In this document: piece after piece, positions 423 through 47,896 of the stretch
Position numbering within the stretch: the stretch's first letter is position 1
Layout of the letters: each line of letters begins with the position of its first letter
Assembly: GCA_964604515.1 (NCBI GenBank)
Contig: CAZRZA010000001.1
Location: 16,243 to 80,242, forward strand
DNA: 64,000 nucleotides
From: an uncultured Gammaproteobacteria bacterium
Lineage (GTDB): Bacteria; Patescibacteriota; Patescibacteriia; UBA1558; GWA2-36-10
Direction of reading: 5' to 3'
Notes under the pieces: model-generated
Databases searched by the model: none
Told to the model about the DNA's origin: nothing
The model's input: the letters and a program-made list of their open reading frames with translations, nothing else
Made by a program: the position numbers and the translations under genes

Positions 423-427
423 ATATT

Positions 428-2075: not shown

Positions 2076-2137
2076 TTTACCTTAATATTAATATGTTAAA
2101 GTTTTCTATATTATAACATATTTTCCTCAAGAAGACC

Positions 2138-2167
2138 AACAAAAAAAATAAACCCTCTGCAGGGTTT
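2138..2167 (-). terminator. rho-independent terminator downstream of efp (minus strand)
   Basis: Hairpin aaaccctctgcagggttt preceded on plus strand by A9 (U-run on minus strand), 15 nt after efp stop. Confidence 0.6.
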
Positions 2168-2183
2168 ATTTATCTAAAATATT

Positions 2184-2741
2184 TTAAATTCTTTCTACAT
2201 ATTCTCCCGTTTCTGTGTTTATTTTTAACTTATCTCCTGCTTTTATAAATAAAGGAGTTCTAATTTCTAAACCTGTTTCTAAAGTAATAACTTTGGTAAC
2301 AGCTCCTGAACTATTACCCTTAACACCGTCAGGTGCTACAGAAACTTCTAAGATTATTTTTTTAGGTAAAGAAATAGAGACTGGATTATTATTAAATATT
2401 AAAACATTTACCTCTTGACCTTCTTTCAAATATTTAACTAAATCACCCAAAGTATCTTCATTAAATTGAAATTGCTCAAAGCTTTCATTGTCCATGAAGA
2501 AATAATCAGCTCCTTGTTGATAAAGAAAGTTAGCTTGACGATTAATAATATCTGCTTCTTCAACATTATCTGAACCAGAGAATGTTTTTTCTAAAGTAGA
2601 GCCAGTTACCAAGTTTTTTAATTTAGTTTTTAATACTGCTCCACCACGGGCTACTTTAATATGTTGAGTATATACTATTTGATAGGGATCATTATTTAAA
2701 TTAATAACTTTACCTAATTTTAATTCATTCATTGCTAACAT
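2184..2741 (-). CDS. efp: elongation factor P (Arg32-type loop)
   Basis: 185 aa; KOW/OB architecture; loop sequence IKVARGGA aligns Arg32 to the modified Lys34 of E. coli EF-P. Confidence 0.93.
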   Translation of the reverse strand: MLAMNELKLGKVINLNNDPYQIVYTQHIKVARGGAVLKTKLKNLVTGSTLEKTFSGSDNVEEADIINRQANFLYQQGADYFFMDNESFEQFQFNEDTLGDLVKYLKEGQEVNVLIFNNNPVSISLPKKIILEVSVAPDGVKGNSSGAVTKVITLETGLEIRTPLFIKAGDKLKINTETGEYVERI

Positions 2742-2745
2742 GAGC

Positions 2746-2964
2746 TTATCTTACTAAATATGGTAAAAAAGCCATAAATCTAGCTCTTTTTATAGATTGA
2801 GCTATTCCTCTTTGATGCTTAGAACAAGCCCCGCTTTTTCTTTTGGGAACTATTTTACCATAAGAGGAGGTAAATCTTTGTAATTGTTGCCAATTCTTAT
2901 AATCAATATGATCTTGATTATTAACACAAAAATGACAGTATTTATTCTTATTTTTCTTATGCAT
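2746..2964 (-). CDS. rpsR: 30S ribosomal protein S18
   Basis: 72 aa; CHFC... basic S18 signature; rpsF-ssb-rpsR order. Confidence 0.9.
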   Translation of the reverse strand: MHKKNKNKYCHFCVNNQDHIDYKNWQQLQRFTSSYGKIVPKRKSGACSKHQRGIAQSIKRARFMAFLPYLVR

Positions 2965-2981
2965 ATTATTTATTATTTAAT

Positions 2982-3425
2982 TTAAAAAGGTATATCCTCA
3001 ACATTAACTTCTTCTACCTCTGCTTCTTTAGTTACAGCTGGCTCTTCTTTTACTTGAGAATAATTATCTTTAGTATATTGCTGATTACTATTACCACCTT
3101 TATTATCTAACATAATCATATTATCAGCTATAATTTCTGTACGATATTTTTTTACTCCACTAGGATCATCCCAGCTTCTAGTTTGTAAACGACCTTCAAT
3201 ATATACTTTACTACCTTTTTTAAGGTATTCACCAACAATTTCTGCTAAACGACGCCAGGCTACTACATTATGAAATTCCGGTTTTTCTTGCTTCTGTCCT
3301 TGAGCATCTTTCCAAACCATATTAGTGGCTACAGAAAAAGAGGTTACATTTTGACCACCTGAAGTAGTACGCATTTCAGGATCACGAACTACATTACCGA
3401 TAATCATTGCTTTATTTAAATTCAT
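2982..3425 (-). CDS. ssb: single-stranded DNA-binding protein
   Basis: N-terminal OB fold (MNLNKAMIIGNVVRDPEMR...WHNVVAW...), acidic C-terminal tail ending DIPF. Confidence 0.9.
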   Translation of the reverse strand: MNLNKAMIIGNVVRDPEMRTTSGGQNVTSFSVATNMVWKDAQGQKQEKPEFHNVVAWRRLAEIVGEYLKKGSKVYIEGRLQTRSWDDPSGVKKYRTEIIADNMIMLDNKGGNSNQQYTKDNYSQVKEEPAVTKEAEVEEVNVEDIPF

Positions 3426-3446
3426 ATATTTATCTTATTTAATTTA

Positions 3447-3887
3447 TTAATCTAAAAGATTATCTAATTTAGAATCAATATCATCTAAATTAATCTTAGT
3501 GATCTCTACTTTATCTTCTTTAGGTTTGTCATTCTTAGTCTTTACCGCTTCTTTTTTAATTTCTCTTTTATTTTCTTTCTTTTCTTCTTCGCTAATAAAA
3601 GGTTTTTTGATAGTTAAATGACGTAAGATATTATCATTATGCTTTAACTTAGTATCTAAATCATTTAAATTACCCTTTTCTTCTGCTTTAAACTCTAAAG
3701 AAATATAAAAACCATGCTTTTGCTTATTAATAGCATAAGCTAATTTCTTACGACCTAAAGAAACGGGTTCTTTGCTTATTTGACCTTTAATACCTTTAAT
3801 GTAATCTAAAACCTTATTTTTGATTTCACCATGCTCTGTTTCAGGTATCAGAGCACTAATAATGAATGTTAGTTCATAGTTTTCCAT
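3447..3887 (-). CDS. rpsF: 30S ribosomal protein S6
   Basis: MENYELTFII... S6 N-terminus; track ORF extends 13 codons upstream from a GTG (3926) which I consider 5' UTR. Confidence 0.85.
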   Translation of the reverse strand: MENYELTFIISALIPETEHGEIKNKVLDYIKGIKGQISKEPVSLGRKKLAYAINKQKHGFYISLEFKAEEKGNLNDLDTKLKHNDNILRHLTIKKPFISEEEKKENKREIKKEAVKTKNDKPKEDKVEITKINLDDIDSKLDNLLD

Positions 3888-3899
3888 ATTTTTATAAAT

Positions 3900-3925
3900 T
3901 ACCCTCAAAATATATTTGAGGGACA
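3900..3925 (-). promoter_or_regulatory. hairpin in rpsF 5' leader (candidate S6:S18 autoregulatory structure)
   Basis: ccctcaaaatatatttgaggg inverted repeat (8-bp stem) immediately upstream of proposed rpsF start. Confidence 0.3.
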
Positions 3926-4054
3926 CATTTACTTAAAGTAAATAGTTTGGTTAATTAGATAAAAAGGAACTTTATTGACGTTAGCTACTTTAACATAAAG
4001 GGTATTATAAGTCAATATATTGACCTAATACTATATTTTAATTACTATTAACTT

Positions 4055-5227
4055 ATGAAAAGATATATATTTATTCTCGGACAAAATCCAGAATTATCAC
4101 AACAAGAAATTATTAATATTATTAAAAGAAAGAAAGGAATAATAGAGGCTATTTCTAATAGTTATGTTTTAGCTAAAATTAATATAAAACCCGCAGAATT
4201 AATTAATAATTTAGGAGGGATAATAAAAATAGTAGAGTATAAAGAAAGTATTAATAATTTAGAAAATTTAAATATTATTGATTATTATCAAGATAATTTA
4301 AATAAAGAAAAGAAAAATAATATTGGCTTTAGTATTTATAATAGTAATAATAAAGAATATCATAAAATATTTAAATCTTTTTTAGAATTAAAAAAAGAAT
4401 TAAAAAAAGATAATTATAAAATTCGTTTAGTGAGTAGTAAAGAAAATATATTATCTTCTGTAATTGTTTCTAAAAATAAATTATTAAATAAAGAATTAAT
4501 TATTATCAAAGATCATAATAATTATTTAATTGGCCTTACTTTAGCTATACAAGATTTTGCTAAATATAGTAAAAGAGATATGCTTCGACCAGCTCGAGAC
4601 AATAAATCAGGCATGCTTCCTCCTAAATTAGCTCAAATAATGATTAATTTAGCTAATTTAGATACTACTAAAGTATTTTTAGATCCATTTTGTGGTTCGG
4701 GAACTATCTTGCAGGAAGCTATGCTTTTAGGGTATCAAAATATAAATGGTAGTGATTTAAGTAATAAAGCTGTCATGGATACCAAAGAAAATATAGCTTG
4801 GCTTAAAAAAGAATATAATTTAAAGAATAATATTAATATTCAAAGAATGGCTACTAAAGACTTAAGCAAATTCTACCCTTCTCATTCTATAGATTTAATT
4901 ATTACTGAACCATTTATGGGAGATGCTCGTTTAATACAAAAAACTAATGACAAAGAAATATTAAAAAGCATTAAATATGAATTACAAGAATTATACTTAA
5001 ATACTTTTAAAGAATTTAAAAAAATACTATCCCCTCAAGGAAGAATAGTATTTATATTCCCTATCATTGATAATTTATATACTTTAGATCAAAGAGTGTT
5101 AAATAATATAGATTTTAAATTAATTAAAGTAGCTAATAACTCTGCTAATTTATCTAATAATAATAATTTAATATATAGTAGAGATAAACAAAAAGTTAAA
5201 AGAGAAATTACTATTTGGCAGAATTAA
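4055..5227 (+). CDS. SAM-dependent RNA methyltransferase, Trm11/RlmL-like (N2-guanine type motifs)
   Basis: DPFCGSGT (motif I) and TEPFMGD (NPPY-like motif IV) in C-terminal half; N-terminal half THUMP-like size. Confidence 0.5.
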   Translation: MKRYIFILGQNPELSQQEIINIIKRKKGIIEAISNSYVLAKINIKPAELINNLGGIIKIVEYKESINNLENLNIIDYYQDNLNKEKKNNIGFSIYNSNNKEYHKIFKSFLELKKELKKDNYKIRLVSSKENILSSVIVSKNKLLNKELIIIKDHNNYLIGLTLAIQDFAKYSKRDMLRPARDNKSGMLPPKLAQIMINLANLDTTKVFLDPFCGSGTILQEAMLLGYQNINGSDLSNKAVMDTKENIAWLKKEYNLKNNINIQRMATKDLSKFYPSHSIDLIITEPFMGDARLIQKTNDKEILKSIKYELQELYLNTFKEFKKILSPQGRIVFIFPIIDNLYTLDQRVLNNIDFKLIKVANNSANLSNNNNLIYSRDKQKVKREITIWQN

Positions 5228-6447
5228 GTTACCCAAGATAAATTATCCTTAATAACTTGTACTTCTCGCCATTTTAATATTCCATCAGCTTCATCTAAAT
5301 AAACAACTTGCCCACTACGCTTTATTAAATGAGTTAAATAATAAGCCATGATAGTGGGTTCTTTAATTTTTAATTTATCTACTAATATCATTTCTAAGAA
5401 TAATCTTCTTTTCAATAATGGTCCTTCTTTAACAAAACTATGAGCAACACCATTACCATATCTAATGGTTAGGAAACGCTTCATGACACTTTGTAAGCGT
5501 TTATCTTCCTTAATTAGCCTGTCTAGGCTCTTTTTCTTTATCAAGACCCTTAAACAGCCTAAAGCTTTATTACTATCTCCTAAGCCTAAACTATCCCATA
5601 GTAAATCTCCTACTTTCATTATTCTATTATCTACTTCAGAAAGAATATACTCTTCTGCTAAAATATCTTTTTCTAAATCTAATAAATCTTGTTTTAATTG
5701 TTCTAAGATATTATCAATATTTATTTCTTCTTTAACTTCTTTTTTCTTTTCTATATATTCAGCTACTGTTAATACAGAACCATTATTAATTATATTTACA
5801 ATATTATCCTTATCATATGAATCAAAGAACCTTATTAAGGAAGTCTTCTCTTCATTATTTAAATCTAAGATATTCTGATTATTAGAAAAGTATTTAGATC
5901 TTTGTAATGAATCATGATTACTGGCTCCTAAATAATGAACATAATCCTTTATCCAATTATCAACACTAGGAGTAACTTTACGATTATCTCTATTAACTAT
6001 CTTTTTAGAACTTAATCTTAAGTCTTTAAAGTCTTCATATTTTTTTAAAAGATTCTTAATATTACCATGAGCTTCATTGGGGAATAATTCATGTTGTAAA
6101 ACTGTTTTTCTTAAATGTTTTAAACGAGGCACTTTACCACCTAAACGAAGAATTAATCTATCTACTTTACCTAAATAATCTTGTAAAGGCCATAATATAT
6201 TATATGCTATTTCTAAGGCTAAAGCTCTTAAGTCTAATTCATTAGCATTTTCTATATCTTCTAATTTCTGAGGAAGGTCTAAAACAGAAACTTCTTTCAA
6301 AAATAAAGGTTTTTGTATGCTTACAATATAATCTATTTGCTTAAAACTAAGAGAAAACTTTTTTTCAATTTCTCTATTAATATTAGTTAAAGTTGAGCTA
6401 AAAACAATATCTTTAACTTCTTCTGGTAATTCTTGTAAGCTATTCAT
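5224..6447 (-). CDS. hypothetical cytoplasmic protein (407 aa), last gene of giant-protein operon
   Basis: Long ORF, 1-nt gap to upstream VirB6-like gene; no recognisable motifs. Confidence 0.5.
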   Translation of the reverse strand: MNSLQELPEEVKDIVFSSTLTNINREIEKKFSLSFKQIDYIVSIQKPLFLKEVSVLDLPQKLEDIENANELDLRALALEIAYNILWPLQDYLGKVDRLILRLGGKVPRLKHLRKTVLQHELFPNEAHGNIKNLLKKYEDFKDLRLSSKKIVNRDNRKVTPSVDNWIKDYVHYLGASNHDSLQRSKYFSNNQNILDLNNEEKTSLIRFFDSYDKDNIVNIINNGSVLTVAEYIEKKKEVKEEINIDNILEQLKQDLLDLEKDILAEEYILSEVDNRIMKVGDLLWDSLGLGDSNKALGCLRVLIKKKSLDRLIKEDKRLQSVMKRFLTIRYGNGVAHSFVKEGPLLKRRLFLEMILVDKLKIKEPTIMAYYLTHLIKRSGQVVYLDEADGILKWREVQVIKDNLSWVT

Positions 6448-6448
6448 T

Positions 6449-8899
6449 TTATTTATTAGATAACTTATCTACTGCCTTAGCTAAGTCTTCTGTTGCTTGA
6501 GTCTGGGCATCTTTAGCATCTTTGGCTGCAACTTTATCTTGTTCAGCTTGCACTTTTTTCTCTTTAGCATCTCTACTCTTCTGCTTCTTACTTATAAATT
6601 TATCACTTTCATCTTTATCATCATCTTCGTCTATATACTTATTATATTCATTAACAACTGTTTCGCTTACCAAATCTCTAGTAACTGTATTATGTAGCAT
6701 TTCATCTGCAGCCTCAAGATTTGTAGTACCATCATCATTTGTAACTTGCAATTCTACTATTAATTCTTTTTGTTTTCTGGTGCTCACTTCTTTTGTTAAG
6801 GATGCTGTATCCTTGGGATCAGCAATTCTAATAGCAGCTTTAAACATATCTGAAGCTTCTTCATTGTTCTTGGGAGCCATCTTAGCAAGAGATTTGCTGC
6901 TAATTACAGATCCTAAGCTCTTATCAAAGTCTTTTTTAGCTGCTGGATCAAGACCAGCGGTTAATTTCTTATAAGCAGCCTTGGATTGTTTAGGATCGTT
7001 CAATTGCATTATAGCTTTTTTACCAGCTGCACTTTCCTTGTCTATGCCACCATCTTTATCTGTTACCTTTCCTTCAGCCTTGATAGAGCTCATTCCTTCT
7101 TTAATAGCTTTTTGCATAGGCCCACTAAGTTTTTCAATAGACTTAAGAAAGTCTTCACTAGAGGTGTTCTTATTAGCTAATATTGCTCCTACTATTTCCT
7201 TAGCTCCTTCGGTTAACTCTCCGTTCTGGGCCATACTATCATCATCAAATCCTTTTAGAGCATCTACTCCTTTTGCTTTTACTAGTTTCTCTGCTGATTC
7301 TGGAGTATGAGTATCAGCTCTTGTCTGTCTTATTTTTTCTACTAACTCTGTTTCTCCTGCAGCACCTAAGTCTTCTATTACTCTCTGAGCCTCATCACTA
7401 TCTTTAAAATTATTATTTTTAGCCTTATCCTTACTTATGGCTAATTTAGTAGCTGGTCCCACACCCAAGCCTTTCTCTAAGTAATCACCCATGTCTGAGT
7501 CTGTTATACCAGCAGCTTTAGCCTTTTCTTCAACATAAGCTGTTTTCTTTCTTCGACGACTATTTTCTTTAGCTTTAGCACGCATTTCAACTTTCTCAAG
7601 AGATTCACCAACTTTACCAAAGGCTCCACCAACTTTTTGACCAAGTTTACTACCTGCTATTTCTTTTAATTTATCGCCATATTTACTGCCCGCTACTTGT
7701 TTACCAATTTTACTATCCTTAGCACTCTTAACTAACCTAACAGCTCCACCGCTTAACTTACTCTTGCCCCATGATGTAGCTCTAGAACCACCACCCTTAA
7801 ACATACCCTCTCCACTTGTGCCAGAATAGAGCATTCTTGCTCCTCCCTTAACTTTGTCTAAGGCTTTTTTCTTAACAGCATTGCCCATAGTACCTATAGC
7901 ATCAGATACTTTAGCAGCCCCTTTCATTCCCATCTCTGATGCTACCTGAAGACTGCCCATTAACATGGCTATACCAATAACAAAATTAATCATTTTATTA
8001 GGCTGATGAGCTTCTCCTAAGCCATCTAAACCGTCTCCTCCGCCACCGGAAGTCATGGAATCGCTTATATCACCAGCACCAACTATAGAAAAAGATAGCC
8101 AAAGAAAAAAAGCTAAAAGAGGGCCCTTTATTAATTCTTTACTTAATTTACTTAACCATTGATCAAAGTATTTCTTGCCACCTGGAAAAACATTAGCAAA
8201 AAAAGCCATAGGTGACAAAACAATAAGTATCCAAAGCTGAACTATCCTAGATGCAAAAGAAGTAATATATATTGCAATAACCATAACGGTTATTAAAAGC
8301 ATAATACCCATTAATATTACAGAAGTAACAACGATAAAGAGTTGCTCTCCACTAGCATTATCAATAGCTGTGCTTAATTCACCCCATTCTCCCATACCTA
8401 AAGCAACTGCTATATTACCAGCTGCTATATCTTTAATAGCAGCAACAAATGTTAACATTACTATTTGAAAAATATCAATAACAAAACCTACTATTGTTTT
8501 ACTAAAATTAATTAAAATAGCTAGAATAAGAAATTTCTTTAAAAGAGCTTCATAACCATAGCTTTTTATCTTTAATATAGTTGCAAAAGCAATAACTAAA
8601 AAAACAATAATAAAAAGCATATTAGACAAATCTCTCATTGCTATCCAACCATTTATAACGCCCTGTTCAAAAATAAAGTTATTATACTGAGCTATCATGG
8701 GTAAAATCCATAATTCTAATTTCAGAACTAAGCCTAAAGGATAAATCATTAAATAATAAACAATGCCTGCTATCATTTGTCCAGCAAAGCCCATCATACC
8801 ATCAGCATGAGCTAAATTAGGAATTATTAAACCACTGATTATCAAAAGAAAAGCCCAGTAATTATTTTTAAATTTATTTCTAATAATATTAATTCTCAT
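6449..8899 (-). CDS. VirB6/TrbL-like polytopic membrane protein with ~500-aa Lys/Gly/Ala/Asp-rich C-terminal tail
   Basis: Start placed at MRINIIRNKF... (signal-like, AHA cleavage) rather than track GTG at 8956 which overlaps the giant gene; ~7 hydrophobic helices in first 320 aa then low-complexity KxG-rich hydrophilic tail. Confidence 0.4.
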   Translation of the reverse strand: MRINIIRNKFKNNYWAFLLIISGLIIPNLAHADGMMGFAGQMIAGIVYYLMIYPLGLVLKLELWILPMIAQYNNFIFEQGVINGWIAMRDLSNMLFIIVFLVIAFATILKIKSYGYEALLKKFLILAILINFSKTIVGFVIDIFQIVMLTFVAAIKDIAAGNIAVALGMGEWGELSTAIDNASGEQLFIVVTSVILMGIMLLITVMVIAIYITSFASRIVQLWILIVLSPMAFFANVFPGGKKYFDQWLSKLSKELIKGPLLAFFLWLSFSIVGAGDISDSMTSGGGGDGLDGLGEAHQPNKMINFVIGIAMLMGSLQVASEMGMKGAAKVSDAIGTMGNAVKKKALDKVKGGARMLYSGTSGEGMFKGGGSRATSWGKSKLSGGAVRLVKSAKDSKIGKQVAGSKYGDKLKEIAGSKLGQKVGGAFGKVGESLEKVEMRAKAKENSRRRKKTAYVEEKAKAAGITDSDMGDYLEKGLGVGPATKLAISKDKAKNNNFKDSDEAQRVIEDLGAAGETELVEKIRQTRADTHTPESAEKLVKAKGVDALKGFDDDSMAQNGELTEGAKEIVGAILANKNTSSEDFLKSIEKLSGPMQKAIKEGMSSIKAEGKVTDKDGGIDKESAAGKKAIMQLNDPKQSKAAYKKLTAGLDPAAKKDFDKSLGSVISSKSLAKMAPKNNEEASDMFKAAIRIADPKDTASLTKEVSTRKQKELIVELQVTNDDGTTNLEAADEMLHNTVTRDLVSETVVNEYNKYIDEDDDKDESDKFISKKQKSRDAKEKKVQAEQDKVAAKDAKDAQTQATEDLAKAVDKLSNK

Positions 8900-8904
8900 A
8901 TATT

Positions 8905-11900
8905 TTAATCTACCTCTATCCAAGTATCGCTTGTATATATCTCTTCCTGATCCCACCAGTCTACAATTTTAATTTGGGGTTTATAACAAGATGTTCCTTC
9001 TTTATTTGATTTACCATCAGTACCATCACATTCAACAGCAGGGTCACCGCTATAAGTATAATTATATTGAAATACTTTATACCCCTCACTACAAGCATCA
9101 TTTGTACCACCAAAACCTTGCATATCTACACCAGTGTCTGTTGGATTATCACAAATTCCATTATCATCAGCATCAGTACACTCTAGAGAATGAGGCATTG
9201 TCCAATCAGAATTACATTTTGGTATTCTATTCTTATACTTACCAATAGTACCTGTAAAATAACCAAGGCCTTCCCAATCAACTTTTATAGCTTTTATGGG
9301 TGAAGCGTCAGGATATGCATAGTAATAGAATTTAATAGCTGCATTACCAGACTGATCATATTCTACCGTTATTCCTTCGTCTCCAAAAGTACATAAATTA
9401 CCACCACTACAATCAAGTTTATATGCTTTGGGATCATATACAGCCCCTGCATAACTATTAACAATATCACCAAGGCCGTCTGTTGAAAGATGATCGTAAG
9501 AATTACCGCTCCACTCTAAATTATATACTTGATAAAATAACTTTTTTAATTCTGTTACAATATATTCTGTCCCAAAGAAAACTGAAGAAGAATAATAAGT
9601 GTTATTAAGAACAGTACCTACTGGAACCTCAGTAATTATTGGTAAAGTATTGTCCCAATCTTGTGCTGCACCAAAATTACCATCTAATATTGTTGCGCTT
9701 CCAATCTCTGAGTATTTAAGAGCGGAAGAACCATATGATGCTGAGGAGTATGCATATGCTGACCAATTAACTATATCAGAAGTCGGATTATTTTTACTTC
9801 TCCACCAAATATCAGCTCTAACAATAGTCTTGTTATGCTCGGCAATACTGTCTACCTCTACAACTTGCCCACATTGCTGATAACAAGCATCTCCCGCACA
9901 AGTATTACCTGACAAAGAAATAGTATAACCACTTCCTGGTGTAGAGCAATCAGTTTCTGTTGTTGCTGCTAAACAGTCTTCTATTTCTGAGCTAATATCT
10001 AAGTCTGGAAAGCTCTCTGGCAATCCACTTAAGTCATATTCTGAGCAATAATCATTACTTATGGTTAAAGCCTCTATTAAGCTTACTATATCATACTCAT
10101 CTGTTCCATCGTCTTCTGTTCCGGCATTAATACTATCATAATAACCCTTATAAATAGTTTTGCTTCTCATACACTCTCTACCATAGGTTGGTCCTGAACA
10201 ATCAAGCTCATTGCACTCTTCTACTCCATCCTCTGGATTATATACATAATAATTATGATTCAATTCATTACAGTATGACTTATGACCATAAACACCCTCG
10301 TCCCAAGGACAATCCTTATGATCAGGAGTGTAACCAGGATAAGTACCATCACCACCTATACCATTTTCTAAATAAACATGTTTTGTATATACCTTGTGCT
10401 TGTTATCATCACAAGCCGGAAAACCAGACTCTTCACTTTCATCATTATGGCTACATATAATCTTATTATTATTTGTTAAACCAACTGATAAATAACTAGA
10501 ACCACTATATGTAGCATTAGGTTTTACATTTTCATCATAATAATAATATTTTAATGTCCCATCAAATAAAGCCTCAATATCACTCTCAAGACTTATGTCA
10601 CCGGTGCCAGATTCCAAATTAAAATCTTCTCTCATAAATCTACTATCACTAGCATCTCCAGGTATCAGTCTGCCACTACCTGTGGTAGGGTAAATAACTT
10701 CTTTACTAGAAACTGTATCGGTTTGATACTTTATATCTCCAATAGTATCTTTCATAAGATGCTTTAAGTAACTATTTTCAAACTCCGCAATATTAATTTT
10801 GCTACCAGCAGGAGCTACCATTAATAAATTACAATAATTATCGTTGAAATAACCACAATATATTAAATCTTCTGGTATTGTATATGCTTCACCAACTGAA
10901 CAGAAATATAAGTCTCCATCTGCATTATAATAACCAGCTTCATCATAATTATCATATAAACTATCTGTGCCACTAATGCTTTCTACCGGATACCATTGAG
11001 TGCATAAATTAGGAATACGATCATAAGAGCCACCCGCATCTGTATCTACTAATATATTAGATCCCTTAGGACTTTTATCATATTCTACACAAATACCAGG
11101 CCAATTATAATAAGTCTCAACTTTAGTTTTCTTAGAACAAGTACCAAAGCCCATCTCACCCTGACAATATACATCTTTATCTGTTGAAGTTGAACAATCT
11201 TCACCTAATAAATCAGGATCTCCTTCTGTACAAACCATATCACTAGAAGACTCTCCTTTGGCTATATATTTAGAATAATTAAGACCATAAGAAACTTTTT
11301 GATAAGTTGTTTCACAGCCACTAGGATTATCACTATTACAAATTTCAACTTGTTGATGATTTGAACTAATTTCACTGGTAGTAGGATTAATAACAGTATC
11401 TGGGAAAGGAGATTCTTCAATTGTATATCCTCTGGTACTTAAGCCATAATAAATATCATCACTATTACCTGCTTGAGGATTTAACCAACAACGCTCTTCA
11501 GAGCATTCACCATAAAAATCACCAACATTACAATCATCACCATTATTAGCAACATCAACACAAGCGGCATGTGTACCACCATTGATAACTAAACGAGGTC
11601 CATCAGTAAAATTATAAACTACCAAACCTTCAACTGGATACATATCTGGAACAGAATAACCTAAATATTCATCATCTGACCATCCTAAATAAGTACCTGC
11701 TAATCTTCCTTGATATTCTTCTTTAGTTAAAGGATCAACCTTAGTTATAATATCATCATCTAAATTAGTATAATTAGCCCATTGAGCACAACTTCTAAAA
11801 GGATCAGAGGAATCATAATTATATTCTGTACAAATACCCACTGAATCACATATATTTTTTACTTGCCCTTTATTATCTGTAACTTGAGTCAGAGACTTAC

Positions 11901-14900
11901 AAGCTAACCATTCTGAACACTTTCTATCTTTTTTAACTTTTATTAACTCATTAGAGTCACAGTCACCTACTATGGTAGGATCACAAGTACTAGGAGTCAT
12001 TGGAGTGCCAGCTGCTGTACTGCTAGCATAAGTGTCTATTGAGTCATAAATAGCTATTACTTCTGAGTGAGAAGAATTCCAATTATTAGCATTATAGAAT
12101 AACATACAACCACTATTCTGATCTACTTGACCAGTACAAGATGTTTTATCTATTTCCTCATTATCAAAATAATAATATGATTGATAATCTCCTTCTACAG
12201 TAATATCACAATTACCAGCTGTACAATCATCCATATCATTGGGATCTCTAAACTCTGTACATAAATTTTGTTCTTCCGGACAAATATTAACCCAATTATT
12301 ATTATAGTCACAGGGCTCTGGAGTATCAGTATTCAAGGTATCTATTTTCCACCAACCATCTGTCAAAGCATTATTATAGGTAATATCAGTTTCATAACGA
12401 CATAATTTATCTCCCGGATATTTAAAGTAATACATTTGTCCTTTAGAGTTTACAAAATTATCACAATATAAACCATCTTCTTCACATAGATTATCACTAT
12501 ATTGATCTGGATCATTGATACGGAAAACAGTATCATAATCAACTATAGTATCAGTAGTATCTAGTTCTGGTAATCCTAAAGCCTGACAACCCTGGTATTC
12601 TCCTGGACAATACTTATCAATATCTGGAACTAAATATTCAATACTATCTGCAGAAATAGTTAATTCTGCATTACCACTACCATATGTTTCTGCAAAAGGA
12701 CTGTCTGAATTATGAGTATTAATAACACCAGTACAACCAATAGCTTCTTCAGAACATAATTCATTAAATGATTTTAAATTATAAGCCTGCCCATTACCAT
12801 CAATATGTTCCTGACAACCAAGATAATAACCGGTATATGGTAAGTCACAAGAAGCTGGTGTAGTCCAAGAATCTTTAATCAAAGAAATATTACCAATAGT
12901 TTCTCTTAATTCTAAATTATCTATATAGATAAAATCAGCTCCATTTACTATTAATTGTAAAGACATATTATCTGCCAAAGAAGCATAATCTAATTCTGCA
13001 AAACTATCATTAGTAATTGTTAATTTATAATCTTGCCAATTAGATATTGCTATATCTTCATCAGAGTCTAAAGGAAGTTCCCCTAAGTCTATTATCTCTG
13101 CCCCTGTATCATCTAATAATTGAAGGCTAATATTATCTATAATACCTGTATTCATCATCCACCAGGATATTTCAAAGTTTTTATTTAATTGTATAGTATC
13201 TGCTATAGCTCTAGTAAAGGTACTGTTTGTGCTTAATTTTAAAGATTTACCATTATTAGATAAAGAAGCATTAGAAATATCTAAACTACCATTATTAGTA
13301 TTCCAAGAATTATAAGTACCATCTTCAAAATCATCTTTAAAGACGCTTCTTAAATTATTAGCAGAATTACCTTTATAAGCTCGACAATTGTTATGCTCTA
13401 TTGAACAACTATTACTTAAACTAGCTATGCCCTTATATAATTGTCCAGAACTATTACGACGATAATCAAGACAATTATCTGTCGCAAAAATTAATCTATT
13501 TTGTAATCTCCAATGAGTATTACCAGCTATATCAAAGAATTCACGACAATGAGGGTTATATTCTGGGTCATCATAAATATCAGCTGTATCTGCCCCACAA
13601 CTTGCTACAGTATCCGTAGTATCCTGACAAGTGTCTCCTCCAGGAGATATATTTGTACAAGGTGCTTGGTCTATATTAGATTTTAAGGCTAACCAAGTCT
13701 CTATTTGATAACCAGCGACATCAGAGCCCTCCCAAGTATAATATGTTTCTCCACTTTCTTCATAAACACATTGTCTAAGGAAAGAATAGTGTTCTGTATA
13801 TTCTCCTCCTTGACTTTGAGATCCTAAATTAGTAAATGATTCACAACCAATATATTGAGCTGGGCAAGCTATTCCTGTTTCTGGTATAAAATTATAATAC
13901 TCTACTTCATAATTACTTTCTAACTCATCAAAAGAACTTGGCATTTGAGCAAAAGAATCATAATTAAGACATTCAGCGGGACATAAATCATCTTGAGTTA
14001 TAATAGCTGGAATTAAATAACCACCATTAGAAGGAGTATAGCCCTGACAACCGACTTCTGTTGCCTGACACATTACTCTATCTTTATTTAAATTAATTTT
14101 ACCACCATCTCCATAGCTAGAATATGAAGGTGCAAAGCTATTTGCAGAAGAAACTATTTTTAATTGAATATTATCAAAATCTAAAAGACCAGTAGAAGAA
14201 TAAATATTAATACTAGCACTAGCTACATATTCATTTGTTTTAAAGTTACAATATCCTTTTTCTAAAGAAGTATTAGAAGGATTAAATTCTAATTTAATAT
14301 TATTATTACTTAAAGAACAATTACCAATGCCCTCTTCTCCTCCTGCTATACTGCTACTACTACAATCATTACTACCATCACAAGTTGCTATATCAATAAT
14401 AGCATCAGAATTAGATCCTGTTTGGGCAGCTAAAATTGCAATATTATAATTAGTATTAGGTAATAAAGTAATATTAGTATATAAGGGTGTTGTTCCTATT
14501 ATGACTTTTCCATCAAAAATACTACCCGCACCACTCCAACCAGTTGGTGTATTATTAGTCTCTCCATCAAAACTACTATTAGCTATTAAATTTGGTCCAG
14601 AGCCAGAACCAATAGCTGGTGTCATTACAATATATTCTGAACAGCCTTCATAATTATCGGGACAAGAACTAGTATTACTGTTTAAGAACAAATCATTACT
14701 TCCAATGCTTATATTACTATCTAAAACCCAGTCACCATTACTATCTTTTTCTTGAGAATAACGTAAACAACCCGCATTATTAGAGGTACAATACTCTAGA
14801 GTATCTTGAATATATGATTCTCTGCCATAACTAGCACTTTCAAAACTTAAACAGCCAGCATAATTAGGATTACAAGAATCACCTTCAAAACGCCAAATAT

Positions 14901-16647
14901 TCTCAGAACGAGTACAGTATCCATAATTAGTTTTACAATTACCCTGCTCATCTTCTTCTAAACAAGTTTTAAAGTCCGCACAATATTGAACACGACGAGA
15001 AGACAAAGAAGACTGTAATTCATTAGAATATGCCAAAGACTGACACATGGCACTAGGTTCTTTCAAAACCCAATCTTCATCTATTAAATGATAAAAAGGA
15101 TTGTGACCAGTATCATCATCACCAAAAATACAATTATAATTAGCATTGCTATTATCACTATCTTCAAAACACCCCAAAACCTCTGCTAATACCACTGGAT
15201 TGCTACCTGGACTAGCTAAAGCTGCTAATTCCCAACCAATGGGTAAGACTCCTGCTTTACGTAATTTAACTAAATTCTTATAACAAAGACCATTTTTATA
15301 ACAATCATAACTTTGATGAGTAGGATTTTCAGGAGATATCAATGGTAAATTATCATCCAGAGAGCCTTCGTCTATAAGCTGTCTAATTGTTTTCTTTTTA
15401 GTTATCAAAGAAAGAAATTCATTGTCAATAACACAATGATCTGCTTTACGAATATCTTCTTCCCCAGGACAAACAACATAATTTGTTAATAAACTATATT
15501 CTGGCATTTCTTGAAAATCAGGTGTTTTTATTTCTTTACTTATATCATAACCACGGGGTGGACGAGAAAAATCAAAACCACCTCTTAATCTGGAAACTAA
15601 ATCTTCAAAATTATCATCATCCTCATATTGATGCATGCCTAATAAACCTTTTTCTATATAAAATCTAGATAATTGACCGGCAATAGTCATAAGAAAACTC
15701 ATGCTAGCATTAGAAATAGCATTGGTTAGGGCCAAAGGAACACCTTCCCAGCTTAAGGACCTAAAATCACCTCCGGAAAAATTCTTAGCCTGTTCACTAG
15801 TTATATCACCCGAACTTTCTAATTCTTTAGCTATGGTCTCGCAACCAGTCTGCTTCTTCTCAGTAATAGGGGTTTTTTTATCTTTAAAACCTTGGCACTT
15901 AGCAAATTCCGCTTTTTTTTCTTCTAAGGTTTTATTCTTATCTTTTTTTATTTCATCTTGTAAAGATAAAAAAGTTCCTAATTCATTTTTCTTTACAGAA
16001 AACATTTTGCTAAAATATTCATTATAAGCATCCTCTTGTTCTTGTGGAGTATCATAAGCTGAAACATCTAATTTCTTTTTTGTAAAATTAACTTGTAATA
16101 TACTAGCCAATTTTTTATCTTTTAATGTTTCTCCAAATTCTTTCCAATTATTAACAACATTATTAAAATCACAATTAGGTGCTGGTGGTTTTTCGACATC
16201 TAATAATCCTAAAGTCAAAGAAAGTTTTATATCTAAAGAAGGAGAACAAAGATTAAGCTTTTCAAAACCACTATCATTTAAGCTAGAAGAAAGATCACCA
16301 ATAAAATCTCCCGCTGCAGAAGAAGCAGCATCAGCAAACAATTCAGAAGCTGTTTTTGTTTCAAATAATGGTTTACCACCCGTCTCTCCTTCTAATACTT
16401 GATTTAAAACACCGAAAGCAGCTTGTTGAGCTACATACTCTGCTGTATAATCTGTTAATTTATAAACTGTTCTTAAGGCTGCAAAATTTAAAGCATCTCC
16501 TATTTTTTCCCAAATCCATTTAGCAGAATCAACTACACCAAAAGTGGCCCATTGAGCTTTAGCTGGTTTTATATTACTAAATCCTATACCAGTTATTATA
16601 AAAAAGAATAAGGAAATACTAATTAAAATCTTTTTGGAGTTATTCAT
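8905..16647 (-). CDS. giant secreted cysteine-rich protein (2580 aa)
   Basis: Uninterrupted 7.7-kb ORF; N-terminal signal peptide (MNNSKKILISISLFFFIITGIGFSNIKPAKA/QW); >100 Cys with recurring Y-x-G-C modules (NYAGC, NYEGC, EVGCQGY, YIGCESF, YLGCQEH, YQGCQAL); no further TM segments. Confidence 0.8.
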   Translation of the reverse strand: MNNSKKILISISLFFFIITGIGFSNIKPAKAQWATFGVVDSAKWIWEKIGDALNFAALRTVYKLTDYTAEYVAQQAAFGVLNQVLEGETGGKPLFETKTASELFADAASSAAGDFIGDLSSSLNDSGFEKLNLCSPSLDIKLSLTLGLLDVEKPPAPNCDFNNVVNNWKEFGETLKDKKLASILQVNFTKKKLDVSAYDTPQEQEDAYNEYFSKMFSVKKNELGTFLSLQDEIKKDKNKTLEEKKAEFAKCQGFKDKKTPITEKKQTGCETIAKELESSGDITSEQAKNFSGGDFRSLSWEGVPLALTNAISNASMSFLMTIAGQLSRFYIEKGLLGMHQYEDDDNFEDLVSRLRGGFDFSRPPRGYDISKEIKTPDFQEMPEYSLLTNYVVCPGEEDIRKADHCVIDNEFLSLITKKKTIRQLIDEGSLDDNLPLISPENPTHQSYDCYKNGLCYKNLVKLRKAGVLPIGWELAALASPGSNPVVLAEVLGCFEDSDNSNANYNCIFGDDDTGHNPFYHLIDEDWVLKEPSAMCQSLAYSNELQSSLSSRRVQYCADFKTCLEEDEQGNCKTNYGYCTRSENIWRFEGDSCNPNYAGCLSFESASYGRESYIQDTLEYCTSNNAGCLRYSQEKDSNGDWVLDSNISIGSNDLFLNSNTSSCPDNYEGCSEYIVMTPAIGSGSGPNLIANSSFDGETNNTPTGWSGAGSIFDGKVIIGTTPLYTNITLLPNTNYNIAILAAQTGSNSDAIIDIATCDGSNDCSSSSIAGGEEGIGNCSLSNNNIKLEFNPSNTSLEKGYCNFKTNEYVASASINIYSSTGLLDFDNIQLKIVSSANSFAPSYSSYGDGGKINLNKDRVMCQATEVGCQGYTPSNGGYLIPAIITQDDLCPAECLNYDSFAQMPSSFDELESNYEVEYYNFIPETGIACPAQYIGCESFTNLGSQSQGGEYTEHYSFLRQCVYEESGETYYTWEGSDVAGYQIETWLALKSNIDQAPCTNISPGGDTCQDTTDTVASCGADTADIYDDPEYNPHCREFFDIAGNTHWRLQNRLIFATDNCLDYRRNSSGQLYKGIASLSNSCSIEHNNCRAYKGNSANNLRSVFKDDFEDGTYNSWNTNNGSLDISNASLSNNGKSLKLSTNSTFTRAIADTIQLNKNFEISWWMMNTGIIDNISLQLLDDTGAEIIDLGELPLDSDEDIAISNWQDYKLTITNDSFAELDYASLADNMSLQLIVNGADFIYIDNLELRETIGNISLIKDSWTTPASCDLPYTGYYLGCQEHIDGNGQAYNLKSFNELCSEEAIGCTGVINTHNSDSPFAETYGSGNAELTISADSIEYLVPDIDKYCPGEYQGCQALGLPELDTTDTIVDYDTVFRINDPDQYSDNLCEEDGLYCDNFVNSKGQMYYFKYPGDKLCRYETDITYNNALTDGWWKIDTLNTDTPEPCDYNNNWVNICPEEQNLCTEFRDPNDMDDCTAGNCDITVEGDYQSYYYFDNEEIDKTSCTGQVDQNSGCMLFYNANNWNSSHSEVIAIYDSIDTYASSTAAGTPMTPSTCDPTIVGDCDSNELIKVKKDRKCSEWLACKSLTQVTDNKGQVKNICDSVGICTEYNYDSSDPFRSCAQWANYTNLDDDIITKVDPLTKEEYQGRLAGTYLGWSDDEYLGYSVPDMYPVEGLVVYNFTDGPRLVINGGTHAACVDVANNGDDCNVGDFYGECSEERCWLNPQAGNSDDIYYGLSTRGYTIEESPFPDTVINPTTSEISSNHQQVEICNSDNPSGCETTYQKVSYGLNYSKYIAKGESSSDMVCTEGDPDLLGEDCSTSTDKDVYCQGEMGFGTCSKKTKVETYYNWPGICVEYDKSPKGSNILVDTDAGGSYDRIPNLCTQWYPVESISGTDSLYDNYDEAGYYNADGDLYFCSVGEAYTIPEDLIYCGYFNDNYCNLLMVAPAGSKINIAEFENSYLKHLMKDTIGDIKYQTDTVSSKEVIYPTTGSGRLIPGDASDSRFMREDFNLESGTGDISLESDIEALFDGTLKYYYYDENVKPNATYSGSSYLSVGLTNNNKIICSHNDESEESGFPACDDNKHKVYTKHVYLENGIGGDGTYPGYTPDHKDCPWDEGVYGHKSYCNELNHNYYVYNPEDGVEECNELDCSGPTYGRECMRSKTIYKGYYDSINAGTEDDGTDEYDIVSLIEALTISNDYCSEYDLSGLPESFPDLDISSEIEDCLAATTETDCSTPGSGYTISLSGNTCAGDACYQQCGQVVEVDSIAEHNKTIVRADIWWRSKNNPTSDIVNWSAYAYSSASYGSSALKYSEIGSATILDGNFGAAQDWDNTLPIITEVPVGTVLNNTYYSSSVFFGTEYIVTELKKLFYQVYNLEWSGNSYDHLSTDGLGDIVNSYAGAVYDPKAYKLDCSGGNLCTFGDEGITVEYDQSGNAAIKFYYYAYPDASPIKAIKVDWEGLGYFTGTIGKYKNRIPKCNSDWTMPHSLECTDADDNGICDNPTDTGVDMQGFGGTNDACSEGYKVFQYNYTYSGDPAVECDGTDGKSNKEGTSCYKPQIKIVDWWDQEEIYTSDTWIEVD

Positions 16648-16652
16648 ATATT

Positions 16653-17384
16653 TTATTTTTGTATTAATTTATCTCTTATTTCTAATAATTCTTCTTCAGT
16701 CAAAGAATTAATTTCTTCTACATTAGCCTGTGGTTGACTTAAAAGAAAAGATCTTATTTCTTCTGCACCCAAATCTTCAATATTAGTATTAGAATTTAAA
16801 CCACTTTCATTTATAGCTAATAATAAAGTTAGTAAATCATCATCTGTTAAAGAATTAACATCTTCTTCCGAAATATTATTATCTAATAAGAATTGTCTAA
16901 ATTCATTCAAAGTAGCTTGTAAGATAGTTAAATTAGGATCTGAAATAACATCTCCCACTACTTCTGATAATTTACTACTAGGAGTAATTAAAGATAATAA
17001 ATTACAATTTTCTCCCCGCGGACATAAAGGTTCCTGACCAGAGTTAACTTCTTCATAATCAGTATAACCATCACTATCTGTGTCTTCTAAAAAAATAGAA
17101 GTACGATATTGATATAATTCTTGATAATCTGTTAAACCATCATGATCTGTATCCTTGTCTTTTAATTCCGCAATACTTACTTGTTTATTATCTTCTAATT
17201 CTTTATCTAACTGTCTTTGTAAGGCTTCTGGTATTTCAACAAGAAAAGGATTATAAAGAGATTGTTTTAAATACTTAAAACCAAAGATAATAATAATTAT
17301 AGCTATTAAAACAAAAAAGAATATAATTTTATTATTATGAGCTTCTTTTTTATTTCCTAAAATAGAGTTATTTTTTATAGTCAT
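16653..17384 (-). CDS. membrane-anchored protein with thrombospondin-type-3-like Ca-binding repeats
   Basis: N-terminal TM anchor; DKDTDHDGLTDYQE and DTDSDGYTDYEE (D-x-D-x-D-G-x-x-D-x-x-E) repeats; 5-nt gap to giant gene. Confidence 0.6.
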   Translation of the reverse strand: MTIKNNSILGNKKEAHNNKIIFFFVLIAIIIIIFGFKYLKQSLYNPFLVEIPEALQRQLDKELEDNKQVSIAELKDKDTDHDGLTDYQELYQYRTSIFLEDTDSDGYTDYEEVNSGQEPLCPRGENCNLLSLITPSSKLSEVVGDVISDPNLTILQATLNEFRQFLLDNNISEEDVNSLTDDDLLTLLLAINESGLNSNTNIEDLGAEEIRSFLLSQPQANVEEINSLTEEELLEIRDKLIQK

Positions 17385-17452
17385 TAATTAACAATACTTT
17401 TTATTTTAATATTCATTATTATAACATAAAAAAGGATAATTAACAAAATGGT

Positions 17453-18283
17453 TTAAGATATTTTAGAATATAAATCTAACCAATTTTCTTTAGTTAAATC
17501 TTGAGCTCTAATATTCTTGTCTAAATTTAAACTGGTAAATATTTTAATCAATTTATCCTTTTTTAAATTACTGTCTATTATTAAATTATTTATTAATTTT
17601 TTTCTCTTATGTATAAAGCCTCTATGAATTAAATTCCAAACTTCATCTTCAGCTACATTATAACTCCATTGATGAATATCATAAATATGTATTAAAGCAG
17701 AGTCTACTTTAGGAATAGGATAAAAATCTTCTTTTTTTACTATAGCTACTGTCTCTACTTGAGCATAAAAAGAAATAGCTAAAGATAATAAGCTTTGTCT
17801 CTGATCTATTAAACGATCAGCCACTTCTTTTTGTACCATCAAAAACATATCAGAAGGTTGTTTTTTAAAAGACAAAAACTTATTAATAAACTTAGAGGTT
17901 AAATAATATGGTATATTGGCTACTATTTTATAATTATTTAATTTAGAATTTAATAATACTTTTCTAAATTGTTCATTAGTTAATGATAGTATATCTTGCC
18001 AAATAATTTCTAAATTATTATTATCTTTTTCTAATTTATTTAATACTTTAGAAAAATTTTTATCTATTTCTATAGCTATTACTTTCTGCTTATCTTTAAT
18101 TAATCTTTTTGTTAAAGATCCTAAACCAGGACCAACTTCCAAAATTAATTCTTCTTTGTTAATATTTGCTTCTTTAATAATAATATCTAAAATATCTTCT
18201 GAAATTAAAAAATTTTGCCCCCTAATCTTATTAGGAGACAAATTATATTTTTCTAATAATTTAAATAATTCTTCTTTAATCAT
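17453..18283 (-). CDS. rsmA: 16S rRNA (adenine1518/1519-N6)-dimethyltransferase
   Basis: GQNFL motif, VLEVGPGLGSLT SAM-binding motif. Confidence 0.9.
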   Translation of the reverse strand: MIKEELFKLLEKYNLSPNKIRGQNFLISEDILDIIIKEANINKEELILEVGPGLGSLTKRLIKDKQKVIAIEIDKNFSKVLNKLEKDNNNLEIIWQDILSLTNEQFRKVLLNSKLNNYKIVANIPYYLTSKFINKFLSFKKQPSDMFLMVQKEVADRLIDQRQSLLSLAISFYAQVETVAIVKKEDFYPIPKVDSALIHIYDIHQWSYNVAEDEVWNLIHRGFIHKRKKLINNLIIDSNLKKDKLIKIFTSLNLDKNIRAQDLTKENWLDLYSKIS

Positions 18284-30338: not shown

Positions 30339-30415
30339 TGGTCGTCCTGCTGGGACTTGAACCCAGGACCTCTACTTTATCAGAGTAGCGCTCTAACCAG
30401 CTGAGCTACAGGACG
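30339..30415 (-). tRNA. tRNA-Ile (anticodon GAU), CCA encoded
   Basis: Minus-strand sequence CGTCCTGTAGCTCAGCTGGTTAGAGCGCTACTCTGATAAAGTAGAGGTCCTGGGTTCAAGTCCCAGCAGGACGACCA folds as cloverleaf: 7-bp acceptor, GCTCAGCTGGTTAGAGC D-arm, anticodon loop CUGAUAA, GGTTCAAGTCC T-arm. Confidence 0.9.
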
Positions 30416-47859: not shown

Positions 47860-47896
47860 ATACATAAGTATACTATATATATGATATAATATAAAT

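Follow-up and report, generated by a model that had tools for sequence, protein, structure and literature searches.

The stretch analyzed here, hereafter the window, comprises 64,000 nt of contig CAZRZA010000001.1 (assembly GCA_964604515.1) and carries on its minus strand a compact block of four genes (5224–17384). They encode a predicted calcium-binding membrane anchor, a giant secreted cysteine-rich protein, a VirB6/TrbL-like membrane protein, and a soluble protein of 407 aa. We propose that this block is the envelope-proximal operon of a chromosomal, relaxase-less machine resembling type IV secretion systems (T4SSs) and typical of Patescibacteria, a reading to which we assign a probability of about 0.65. 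Lineages of Komeili-, Falkow-, Uhr-, Kuenen-, and Magasanikbacteria type, grouped in class ABY1 by GTDB, have this variant. An earlier note on this DNA regarded the block as a candidate for an undescribed system. That claim has to be given up, as a chromosomal, relaxase-less T4SS of Gram-positive type with VirB4, TrsD, PrgI/VirB3, and VirB6 is already known from across the Patescibacteria (PMC12102498) and, in Southlakia epibionticum, is essential (PMC10633639). In our reading, the locus is the envelope half of this known system, to which it adds the giant protein and the family of the 407-aa protein as candidate parts.

The open reading frame (ORF) listing bears out the four genes where the earlier note had placed them, the third being given as an 835-aa ORF with a GTG start (6449–8956). 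We use P407 and P394 as working family names for the 407-aa protein and for a 394-aa protein encoded elsewhere in the window, A2 for the profile of the giant family, and A4 for the alignment of anchor orthologs. The genes of the block and those of the linked ATPase half are as follows (TM, transmembrane; TSP3, thrombospondin type 3).

16653–17384, minus strand: TM-anchored predicted calcium-binding protein, 243 aa, with a TM helix, two TSP3 repeats, a CPxGxxC loop, and two ~35-aa helical motifs
8905–16647, minus strand: secreted giant protein, 2580 aa, with a signal peptide, conserved N-terminal two thirds, and a variable region at aa ~1900–2300
7865–8899, minus strand: VirB6/TrbL-like polytopic membrane domain, aa 1–345 of an 816-aa protein starting at ATG 8899
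6449–7864 including the stop codon, minus strand: Lys-rich low-complexity C-terminal tail of the same protein, ~470 aa (~346–816), delimited by composition and conservation
5224–6447, minus strand: soluble three-domain protein, 407 aa (P407 family), starting 1 nt after the VirB6-like stop
891–2075, minus strand: soluble protein, 394 aa (P394 family), directly upstream of PrgI, with a conserved C-terminal ~110 aa
428–889, minus strand: PrgI family (VirB3-like) membrane protein (PF12666, 40.5 bits for a cut-off of 27)
1–424, minus strand: first ~140 codons of a TrsD/TraC-like gene (VirB4 N-terminal domain-like), running off the window

A VirB6-Like Protein by Predicted Fold and Context

We accept the 816-aa protein as VirB6-like on the basis of its modeled fold and its context. 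Its membrane domain is predicted to form a polytopic helical bundle that superimposes on a solved VirB6. The best fold match is TrwI/VirB6 of plasmid R388 (7o3v_F; 240 of 261 residues aligned, score 12.4), and DotA, the channel component of the Legionella Dot/Icm T4SS, ranks third (10.2). The fold match alone is not unique, because a designed helical repeat protein ranks second (11.1). The profile alignment with R388 TrwI obtained by hhalign is weak (E = 0.015) and pairs query residues 213–275 with TrwI 164–226, presumably the conserved core of the VirB6 family. A PDB sequence-profile search with the VirB6 family returned no match. The hidden Markov models (HMMs) of the VirB6/TrbL families (PF04610, PF19590) do not recognize the window protein itself and do, weakly, recognize its orthologs: 7 of 27 homologs of the membrane domain carry a precomputed match to PF19590 (TrbL_3), 5 of 25 a weak match to PF04610 (TrbL; best E 3.4e-4), and the same weak TrbL marks occur in the VirB6 orthologs of syntenic loci. 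These 27 homologs come, where the source name bears a taxon, from Patescibacteria, except for one Methylomirabilis-labeled record. The VirB6/TrbL-like identity proposed in the earlier note is therefore supported by the fold, by these weak matches, and by linkage to PrgI, TrsD, and VirB4 genes.

The polytopic domain and the low-complexity tail described previously are both present, the tail measuring ~470 rather than 500 aa. Its composition is rich in K, A, D, G, S, and E (K 16%, A 12%, D 9%, G 9%), and its column conservation is 0.10–0.23 versus 0.6–0.75 in the TM core. It is present in all orthologs, whose full-length forms range from ~800 to ~1350 aa. The only indication of its topology, the positive-inside rule applied to alternating basic and acidic loops, suggests that it is cytoplasmic.

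Linkage to the ATPase Half of the System

In the window, the VirB6-like gene lies ~5.6 kb upstream of PrgI, and the block and PrgI are ~4.3 kb apart, the cluster being split by a methyltransferase gene and rpsF-ssb-rpsR-efp. The truncated gene at 1–424 matches TrsD (NF041427, E 1.2e-10, under the full-length cut-off for this partial gene) and VirB4_plasma (3.4e-8), and it is 70–78% identical to TraC-like proteins of 226–230 aa (PF26593) that precede VirB4 in relatives. The window ends inside it; in syntenic relatives, a VirB4 of 612–647 aa with DUF87/P-loop_TraG domains comes next. Of the VirB4-like/PrgI-like pair formerly placed 3 kb from the block, PrgI stands, at the larger distance given above; the other member is a TrsD/TraC-like N-terminus, VirB4 proper being located beyond the corresponding edge in relatives. 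Apart from these genes, the ten largest ORFs of the window encode housekeeping or surface proteins and include neither a relaxase nor a coupling protein (ORFs under ~300 aa were not all scanned), in line with the absence reported earlier.

The contigs of four P407 homologs 39–50% identical to the window protein all show the same arrangement: a giant gene (2548–2906 aa), a VirB6-like gene (806–1040 aa), a gene for a protein of 41x aa, the reversed methyltransferase gene, and rpsF-ssb-rpsR-efp, followed by genes for a 438–489-aa protein, PrgI, a TraC-like protein (226–228 aa), VirB4 (DUF87/P-loop_TraG, 622–639 aa), and small proteins. A scan with the VirB6 alignment of one genome per GTDB species detected more than 342 relatives, from which 80 loci were kept. 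They belong to Komeili-, Falkow-, Uhr-, and Kuenenbacteria and other Patescibacteria, and most of them have the same order. About 30 of these loci, in addition to L015, L020, L022, and L028, come from GTDB representative metagenome-assembled genomes titled "uncultured Gammaproteobacteria bacterium." Records with this title that carry the patescibacterial cluster are evidently mislabeled, and such titles are unreliable for taxonomy.

BLASTP mapping distinguishes two arrangements, that of the window's clade and that of distant clades. In the latter, ksgA, the TSP3 gene, the giant gene, VirB6, one gene coding for 300–430 aa, P394, PrgI, and TrsD are contiguous, and the gap between VirB6 and P394 is 1.1–1.3 kb or nil. 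As these genes are contiguous there, the two halves that lie ~4.3 kb apart in the window form one cluster elsewhere. The order TSP3, giant, VirB6, P407 is kept across relatives and linked to the ATPase half, so that the gene-order conservation expected in the earlier note is observed. Upstream sequence of 8 kb or more is available in 50 loci, and 44 of these have a giant homolog within 10 kb upstream of VirB6, either directly or across one to three genes. The TSP3 gene is found upstream of the giant gene in 18 of the 20 loci with room for it.

The methyltransferase gene and rpsF-ssb-rpsR-efp are inserted at the P407/P394 junction (window 2075–5224). At the same P407-like/P394 junction, L025, L035, and L043 carry metK, ahcY, a PfkB-type sugar kinase gene, and fragments of a PEP-utilizing enzyme gene. 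Because housekeeping genes are recurrently inserted at this point, the sequences argue for one system made of two transcription units, TSP3-giant-VirB6-P407 and P394-PrgI-TrsD-VirB4 with the genes that follow. Immediately upstream of VirB6, the distant clades (L016–L080) also encode a conserved protein of ~190–280 aa that has two TM segments; in loci with a giant gene, it stands between that gene and VirB6. It occurs in ~50 loci (e.g., L017:9337–9921 and L018:9303–9977), shares the motif FGLSLIxINxHVFL...LFCKLGEEW, and has no Pfam match. A search of the window for a homolog returned none at E ≤ 10; the window's clade has apparently lost or replaced this gene.

P407 and P394 as Soluble T4SS-Associated Proteins

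P407 has no TM segment and no sequence match in Pfam, NCBIfam, PHROGs, or the PDB. Its 118 close homologs are of constant length and 38–74% identical. A profile search of 1.84 billion representative proteins retrieved 1798 clusters, defined at 50% identity, at E ≤ 1e-3 and 895 at E ≤ 1e-10. The 59 distant members sampled contain no Pfam domain, and their clusters are named only "hypothetical protein." Structure prediction with AlphaFold2 yielded a high-confidence model (predicted local distance difference test score, pLDDT, 86) and no convincing PDB fold match; a PDB profile search with the family gave nothing significant.

The P407 HMM detects the gene that follows VirB6 in distant clades (E 1e-5 to 1e-18), with matches running through the N-terminal domain and the core (~145–215). 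In 58 of 60 loci, the P407-like gene starts 1–60 nt after the VirB6 stop. Four distant proteins with the P407 domain, chosen by length and contig size, are all encoded immediately before PrgI or a gene of PrgI size, after which come TraC-like and VirB4 genes. P394 likewise precedes PrgI in all loci reaching that far. The order in L088 is VirB6 (924 aa), P407-like (518 aa), P394-like (412 aa), PrgI, TrsD, VirB4. In L086, according to HMM assignments, VirB6 (1583 aa) is followed by a 661-aa P407-P394 fusion, PrgI, TrsD, VirB4, and, further on, two T4SS_pilin genes and RadA. Fusions of P407-like and P394-like sequences were identified in L021, L022, P0272, P0322, and P0259; those of L021 and L022 contain the P407 core inside a 638–645-aa protein with a P394-like C-terminus. 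P407 and P394 are not detectable paralogs, this relationship being rejected by BLAST (E 0.25) and hhalign (probability 1.3%). The 407-aa protein, previously listed as an unknown, is thus assigned to a conserved family from the context of its relatives and distant members. Judged from this context, P407, together with P394, is a soluble, widespread T4SS-associated component and no stray neighbor.

A Giant Cysteine-Rich Protein and Its Candidate Anchor

The following features were delimited in the giant protein (CBM, carbohydrate-binding module) and in the 243-aa protein.

16552–16647, minus strand: signal peptide of the giant (aa 1–32), ending ...PAKA/QW, its sole hydrophobic segment
14149–14595, minus strand: first CBM4/9/22-like beta-sandwich module of the giant (aa ~685–833), boundaries set by the motif NLIxNxSFE ... 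DNIQL
12892–13359, minus strand: second CBM4/9/22-like module of the giant (aa ~1097–1252)
aa ~20–36, minus strand: N-terminal TM helix of the anchor
17118–17153, minus strand: TSP3 repeat 1 of the anchor (aa 78–89, PF18884)
17049–17084, minus strand: TSP3 repeat 2 of the anchor (aa 101–112, PF18884)

The giant is secreted and Cys-rich, as the earlier note had it. It contains 98 Cys, among them at least ten C-x6-C-x2-[YF] motifs, many in the conserved N-terminal two thirds, and is strongly acidic (401 D+E vs. 170 K+R). All 32 full-length orthologs extracted have a signal peptide and 80–118 Cys, and ~40 Cys columns are invariant at an overall identity of only 23–39%. The 86 homologs range from 1.5 to 3.6 k aa, the conserved form adjoining VirB6 from 2.4 to 3.6 k aa, and every source name that bears a taxon is patescibacterial. 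Conservation is highest over residues 1–1600 and lowest at ~1900–2300. This pattern would fit a machine-proximal base and a host-facing tip.

Two modules of the giant are CBM-like by profile and therefore candidate glycan-binding domains. Searched against the PDB, the A2 profile matches solved CBM structures at positions ~640–785 (8xmz, 7e-5; 2zez, 3.5e-3) and ~1075–1232 (4xup, a xylanase CBM22, E 4.3e-10; 4d0q, 4e-7). Pfam CBM_4_9 (PF02018) is found in 14 of 16 homologs (best 6e-13); in the window protein, its match at aa 1102–1167 (16.8 bits) is under the cut-off of 25.9. The 3025-aa homolog P0223 combines CBM_4_9 with a type I dockerin (PF00404), which hints at calcium-dependent docking as a mode of attachment in this family, and one homolog has a LamG domain. 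More than 85% of the length of the giant is without match to any known family. Domain scans detected no enzymatic, toxin, or catalytic glycoside hydrolase domain, and the profile of the N-terminal domain retrieved nothing from the PDB.

The 243-aa protein corresponds to the TM-anchored, thrombospondin-type-3 calcium-binding protein of the earlier description: in addition to the TM segment, its two repeats score 28.5 bits with PF18884 (TSP3_bac; cut-off 25), the only match over threshold in Pfam, NCBIfam, and PHROGs scans of the four block proteins. Across the 20 orthologs of A4, residues D78, D80, D82, G83, E89, D101, D103, D105, D109, and E112 are invariant, and calcium binding through the DxDxDGxxDxxE repeats is predicted. 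The C-terminal half (16653–17048) carries a ~35-aa motif, LRxLLIxxGxxxExLDxISDxDLLxxY, present in one to three copies across the family. This motif, which Pfam does not match, looks like a helix-extended-helix (SAP/HeH-like) unit.

Gene Junctions and Transcription Signals

Read directly, the spacers of the block are 5 nt between the stop of the TSP3 gene and the ATG of the giant gene, 5 nt between the giant stop and ATG 8899, and 1 nt between the VirB6-like stop and the ATG of the 407-aa gene. The spacing of 1–6 nt noted earlier holds if the VirB6-like gene starts at ATG 8899 (816 aa), which is the more likely start, and not with the 835-aa GTG start, which would overlap the giant gene by 52 nt. 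The TSP3/giant (16645–16655) and giant/VirB6 (8897–8907) junctions have the same minus-strand sequence, TAAAATATATG, that is, a stop, 5 nt, and a start, without a Shine-Dalgarno-like purine run. This arrangement suggests coupling by termination and reinitiation. The 3′ end of the 407-aa gene lies 4 nt inside the convergent methyltransferase gene (4055–5227; UPF0020/TIGR01177), so the four-gene unit ends there.

A 68-nt spacer separates the block from ksgA (17453–18283) upstream. It contains the promoter-like site ranked top in the region scan.

17418–17446, minus strand: promoter-like site, TTGTTA-17 nt-TATAAT with an upstream TG, in the ksgA/TSP3 spacer

This candidate promoter of the four-gene unit is weak evidence and only suggestive, because such sites are not enriched over shuffles in AT-rich DNA (97 in the region vs. 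80.9 ± 9.3). A terminator scan detected none that is convincing between the four genes and a few intragenic matches at shuffle level. The short spacers, the best promoter-like site just upstream, and the conserved order support the view that the block is one unit. The window is AT-rich (24–35% G+C). The VirB6 and giant genes (6001–16000) have 32–35% G+C versus 24–28% in neighboring genes, and other long genes of the window are as G+C-rich. The raised G+C probably reflects amino-acid composition and not foreign origin.

Other Possible Surface Proteins Encoded in the Window

Three further genes of the window deserve mention. A 458-aa protein (24473–25849, plus strand), encoded 7 kb upstream of the block, has an N-terminal TM region, two LysM domains, and a Peptidase_M23 domain. 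It could be the cell-wall hydrolase (VirB1-like) of the T4SS by analogy with the VirB1-like candidates of Patescibacteria, which often have M23 and LysM domains (PMC12102498). Another large surface protein near the locus, of 1001 aa (26838–29843, minus strand), has three fibronectin type III domains and a C-terminal PG_binding_1 domain. A type IV pilin-like protein of 373 aa (46744–47865, minus strand) combines an N_methyl prepilin motif with a Laminin_G_3/concanavalin-like lectin domain and, from this combination, could be a pilus-tip adhesin.

Relation to Known Systems

In Southlakia epibionticum, an "apparent T4SS" (SEML1_0006–0019) is essential for epibiotic growth (Wang et al. 2023, PMC10633639). 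This system has pilins and no recognizable coupling and relaxase proteins, is similar to Gram-positive conjugative systems, and has VirB6-like proteins reaching ~1000 aa or above; in the tables, VirB4 is 0008, PrgI is 0010, 0011 is a protein of 998 aa, and 0013 is TrbL/VirB6-like and longer than 1085 aa (PMC10633639). A survey described a monophyletic patescibacterial VirB4 clade related to MPF-FATA, 2,272 TrsD and 480 VirB6 homologs (304 of the latter near virB4), VirB3/PrgI, VirB2-like pilins, and hardly any relaxases, and noted ksgA as one of the common neighbors of virB4 (Quinonero-Coronel et al. 2025, PMC12102498). It also stated that "no adhesins, such as PrgB, were detected" (PMC12102498). 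The role of the patescibacterial T4SS was called "completely unknown" in a 2024 perspective, in which effector delivery and nucleotide uptake are both proposed (PMC11665869). In a 2026 preprint, VirB4 is linked to the transfer of macromolecules and to feeding on host RNA. The giant, the TSP3 anchor, and P407/P394 are unmentioned in PMC10633639, PMC12102498, PMC11665869, and the literature searched, which did not cover subscription journals.

The locus resembles these patescibacterial systems in being chromosomal, in having no nearby relaxase or coupling protein, and in its PrgI, TrsD/TraC-like, and DUF87/P-loop_TraG VirB4 genes, the last seen in relatives. Long C-terminal extensions of VirB6-like proteins and a nearby ksgA are also shared. 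It differs from the published descriptions by the giant Cys-rich CBM protein, the TSP3 anchor, and P407/P394. The window contains none of the VirB2-like pilin arrays prominent in Saccharimonadia T4SSs; the sequence beyond VirB4, where L086 and L089 have PF18895 T4SS pilin genes, falls outside it.

Gram-positive conjugative T4SSs share with the locus a single membrane, the order VirB6-like, VirB3-like PrgI, VirB4-like ATPase (as in pCF10), and a large surface adhesin, putative in the case of the giant, encoded with the channel genes. In the Prg/Pcf system of pCF10, of the MPF-FATA class, PrgH-PrgI-PrgJ are accompanied by the adhesin PrgB. Unlike these systems, the locus has no relaxase, coupling protein, or oriT context, and P407/P394 stand between VirB6 and PrgI. 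The giant has no Pfam-detectable relation to described adhesins, CBM_4_9 being its sole match. R388 TrwI/VirB6 (PDB 7o3v) is only 13% identical to the window protein, has no match to it at HMM level, and lacks the ~470-aa tail. VirB6 of R388 carries a VirB5 tip, whereas no VirB5-like protein was found at the locus, where the N-terminal profile of the giant was tested. A VirB6-type domain with a long hydrophilic C-terminal extension, in proteins of 800–1400 aa, is also found in the RvhB6 paralogs of Rickettsiales and in TcpH of pCW3; the tail at the locus is poorly conserved and of low complexity, and the likeness is architectural only. Finally, cell-surface glycanases with CBM4/9/22 modules resemble the locus by such modules, two in the giant, and by calcium-dependent anchoring of dockerin/TSP3 type, a dockerin occurring in one giant homolog. 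They differ in that no catalytic glycoside hydrolase domain was found in the giant and no cohesin was identified.

Alternative Explanations

Several observations weigh against our interpretation of the block. The 816-aa protein has no Pfam or NCBIfam match even at E ≤ 1, and tblastn of the VirB6 domain against 72,556 plasmids gave no match. A VirB5-like (TrwJ) tip at the N-terminus of the giant was ruled out (hhalign probability 0.7%). For P407, a protein with no recognizable fold, any role in the T4SS is a guess. Six of the 50 loci have a VirB6 without a detectable giant within 9–10 kb upstream, and in the distant T4SS loci with upstream sequence available (L086 and L088 of L086–L089), no giant of such size is encoded; the giant is therefore a lineage-specific addition and not a core part. 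By itself, conserved adjacency carries little weight at this locus, as ksgA, a housekeeping gene, is equally conserved beside the block. These last observations would suit a frozen neighborhood of two unrelated units, in which the TSP3 anchor and the giant form a free-standing adhesin or S-layer-like pair beside T4SS genes. Such a chance association would also account for the one to three genes, over gaps of 635–2507 nt, between the giant gene and VirB6 in distant clades. The usual intervening gene, however, is that of the small 2-TM protein tied to VirB6. In addition, giant and VirB6 genes keep the same strand and order in most loci, at a distance of 5 nt in the window, even though orthologs are so divergent, and housekeeping insertions recur at the P407/P394 junction and were not seen among TSP3, giant, and VirB6 genes in the window's clade. 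We consider two unrelated units decidedly unlikely.

The remaining alternatives concern the function and origin of the machine. The system could work inward, as a ComB-like uptake machine for DNA, RNA, or nucleotides from an attached host, the lectin-like giant serving only for docking. Patescibacteria do not make nucleotides themselves, a T4SS-based uptake has been suggested (PMC11665869), and the 2026 preprint links VirB4 to host RNA feeding; the lack of a relaxase or coupling protein in the window and the RadA gene at the end of distant T4SS clusters agree with this. However, nothing in the sequences indicates the direction of transport, Pfam and NCBIfam scans of the block detected neither nuclease nor DNA-binding domains, and the window's ssb gene, a member of the universal rpsF-ssb-rpsR operon, is no evidence for uptake. 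We regard uptake as rather unlikely. We hold it very improbable that the giant is a T4SS substrate, an effector or toxin, and not part of a surface apparatus, although its gene shares a unit with that of the channel protein, substrates are often encoded at T4SS loci, and delivery of effectors has been suggested for Patescibacteria (PMC11665869). A cargo role is unlikely because the N-terminal Sec-type signal peptide would export the protein from a single-membrane cell without the T4SS, and ~98 Cys, two CBM modules, and the lack of any enzymatic or toxin domain in the scans fit a stable extracellular binding protein. Of the two functions offered in the earlier note, cargo or adhesin, an adhesin or extracellular component is the more likely. 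That the block is the remnant of mobile DNA, a decayed integrative conjugative element, is hardly credible. It might be invoked for the G+C content of 32–35% against 24–28% in the flanks and for the relation of the patescibacterial VirB4 to a monoderm conjugation type (PMC12102498). We reject it, as neither an integrase nor a relaxase turned up among the large ORFs, no tRNA gene flanks the block (the single one lies at 30339–30415), and the same chromosomal position, between ksgA and rpsF/efp, is conserved in many species; other long genes of the window are equally G+C-rich, and no plasmid match was found.

A Proposed Mechanism and Its Significance

As the envelope half of a T4SS-like machine, the block could operate as follows. 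VirB6, PrgI, TrsD, and the VirB4 ATPase would form a cytoplasmic-membrane translocon in which VirB6 is the membrane platform, its Lys-rich tail facing the cytoplasm. P407 and P394 would be soluble cytoplasmic accessory subunits of this translocon, possibly a scaffold for its assembly or an adaptor for substrates where no coupling protein is linked. The giant would be exported by Sec, stabilized by ~49 disulfides, and held at the cell surface, plausibly through the calcium-binding anchor, VirB6, or both. Its two CBM-type lectin modules and its variable C-terminal third may bind glycans of the host-cell surface and thereby position the secretion channel on the host cell, as PrgB does for Gram-positive conjugative T4SSs. 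The channel might carry protein effectors outward, or nucleic acid or nutrients inward. The giant and the anchor would then constitute a lineage-specific host-contact structure. A bolder version of this scheme, which we offer as a tentative possibility, is that of a T4SS which, in this group of Patescibacteria, would have a purpose-built extracellular organ. There, a disulfide-locked lectin protein of 2.5–3.6 k aa would be docked via a calcium-binding anchor onto VirB6, its variable distal third setting host specificity, and P407/P394 would be a new core cytoplasmic subunit across Patescibacteria that receives or gates substrates where the coupling protein is missing.

Few machines have been shown to be essential for a cultivated patescibacterium to live as an epibiont, and the T4SS is among them. 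The locus reveals no new kind of system; it extends the parts list of this T4SS by three candidates: a protein for host contact whose modules would bind sugars and whose tip is variable, a predicted calcium-binding anchor, and P407, a very widespread family of soluble proteins without a known fold.

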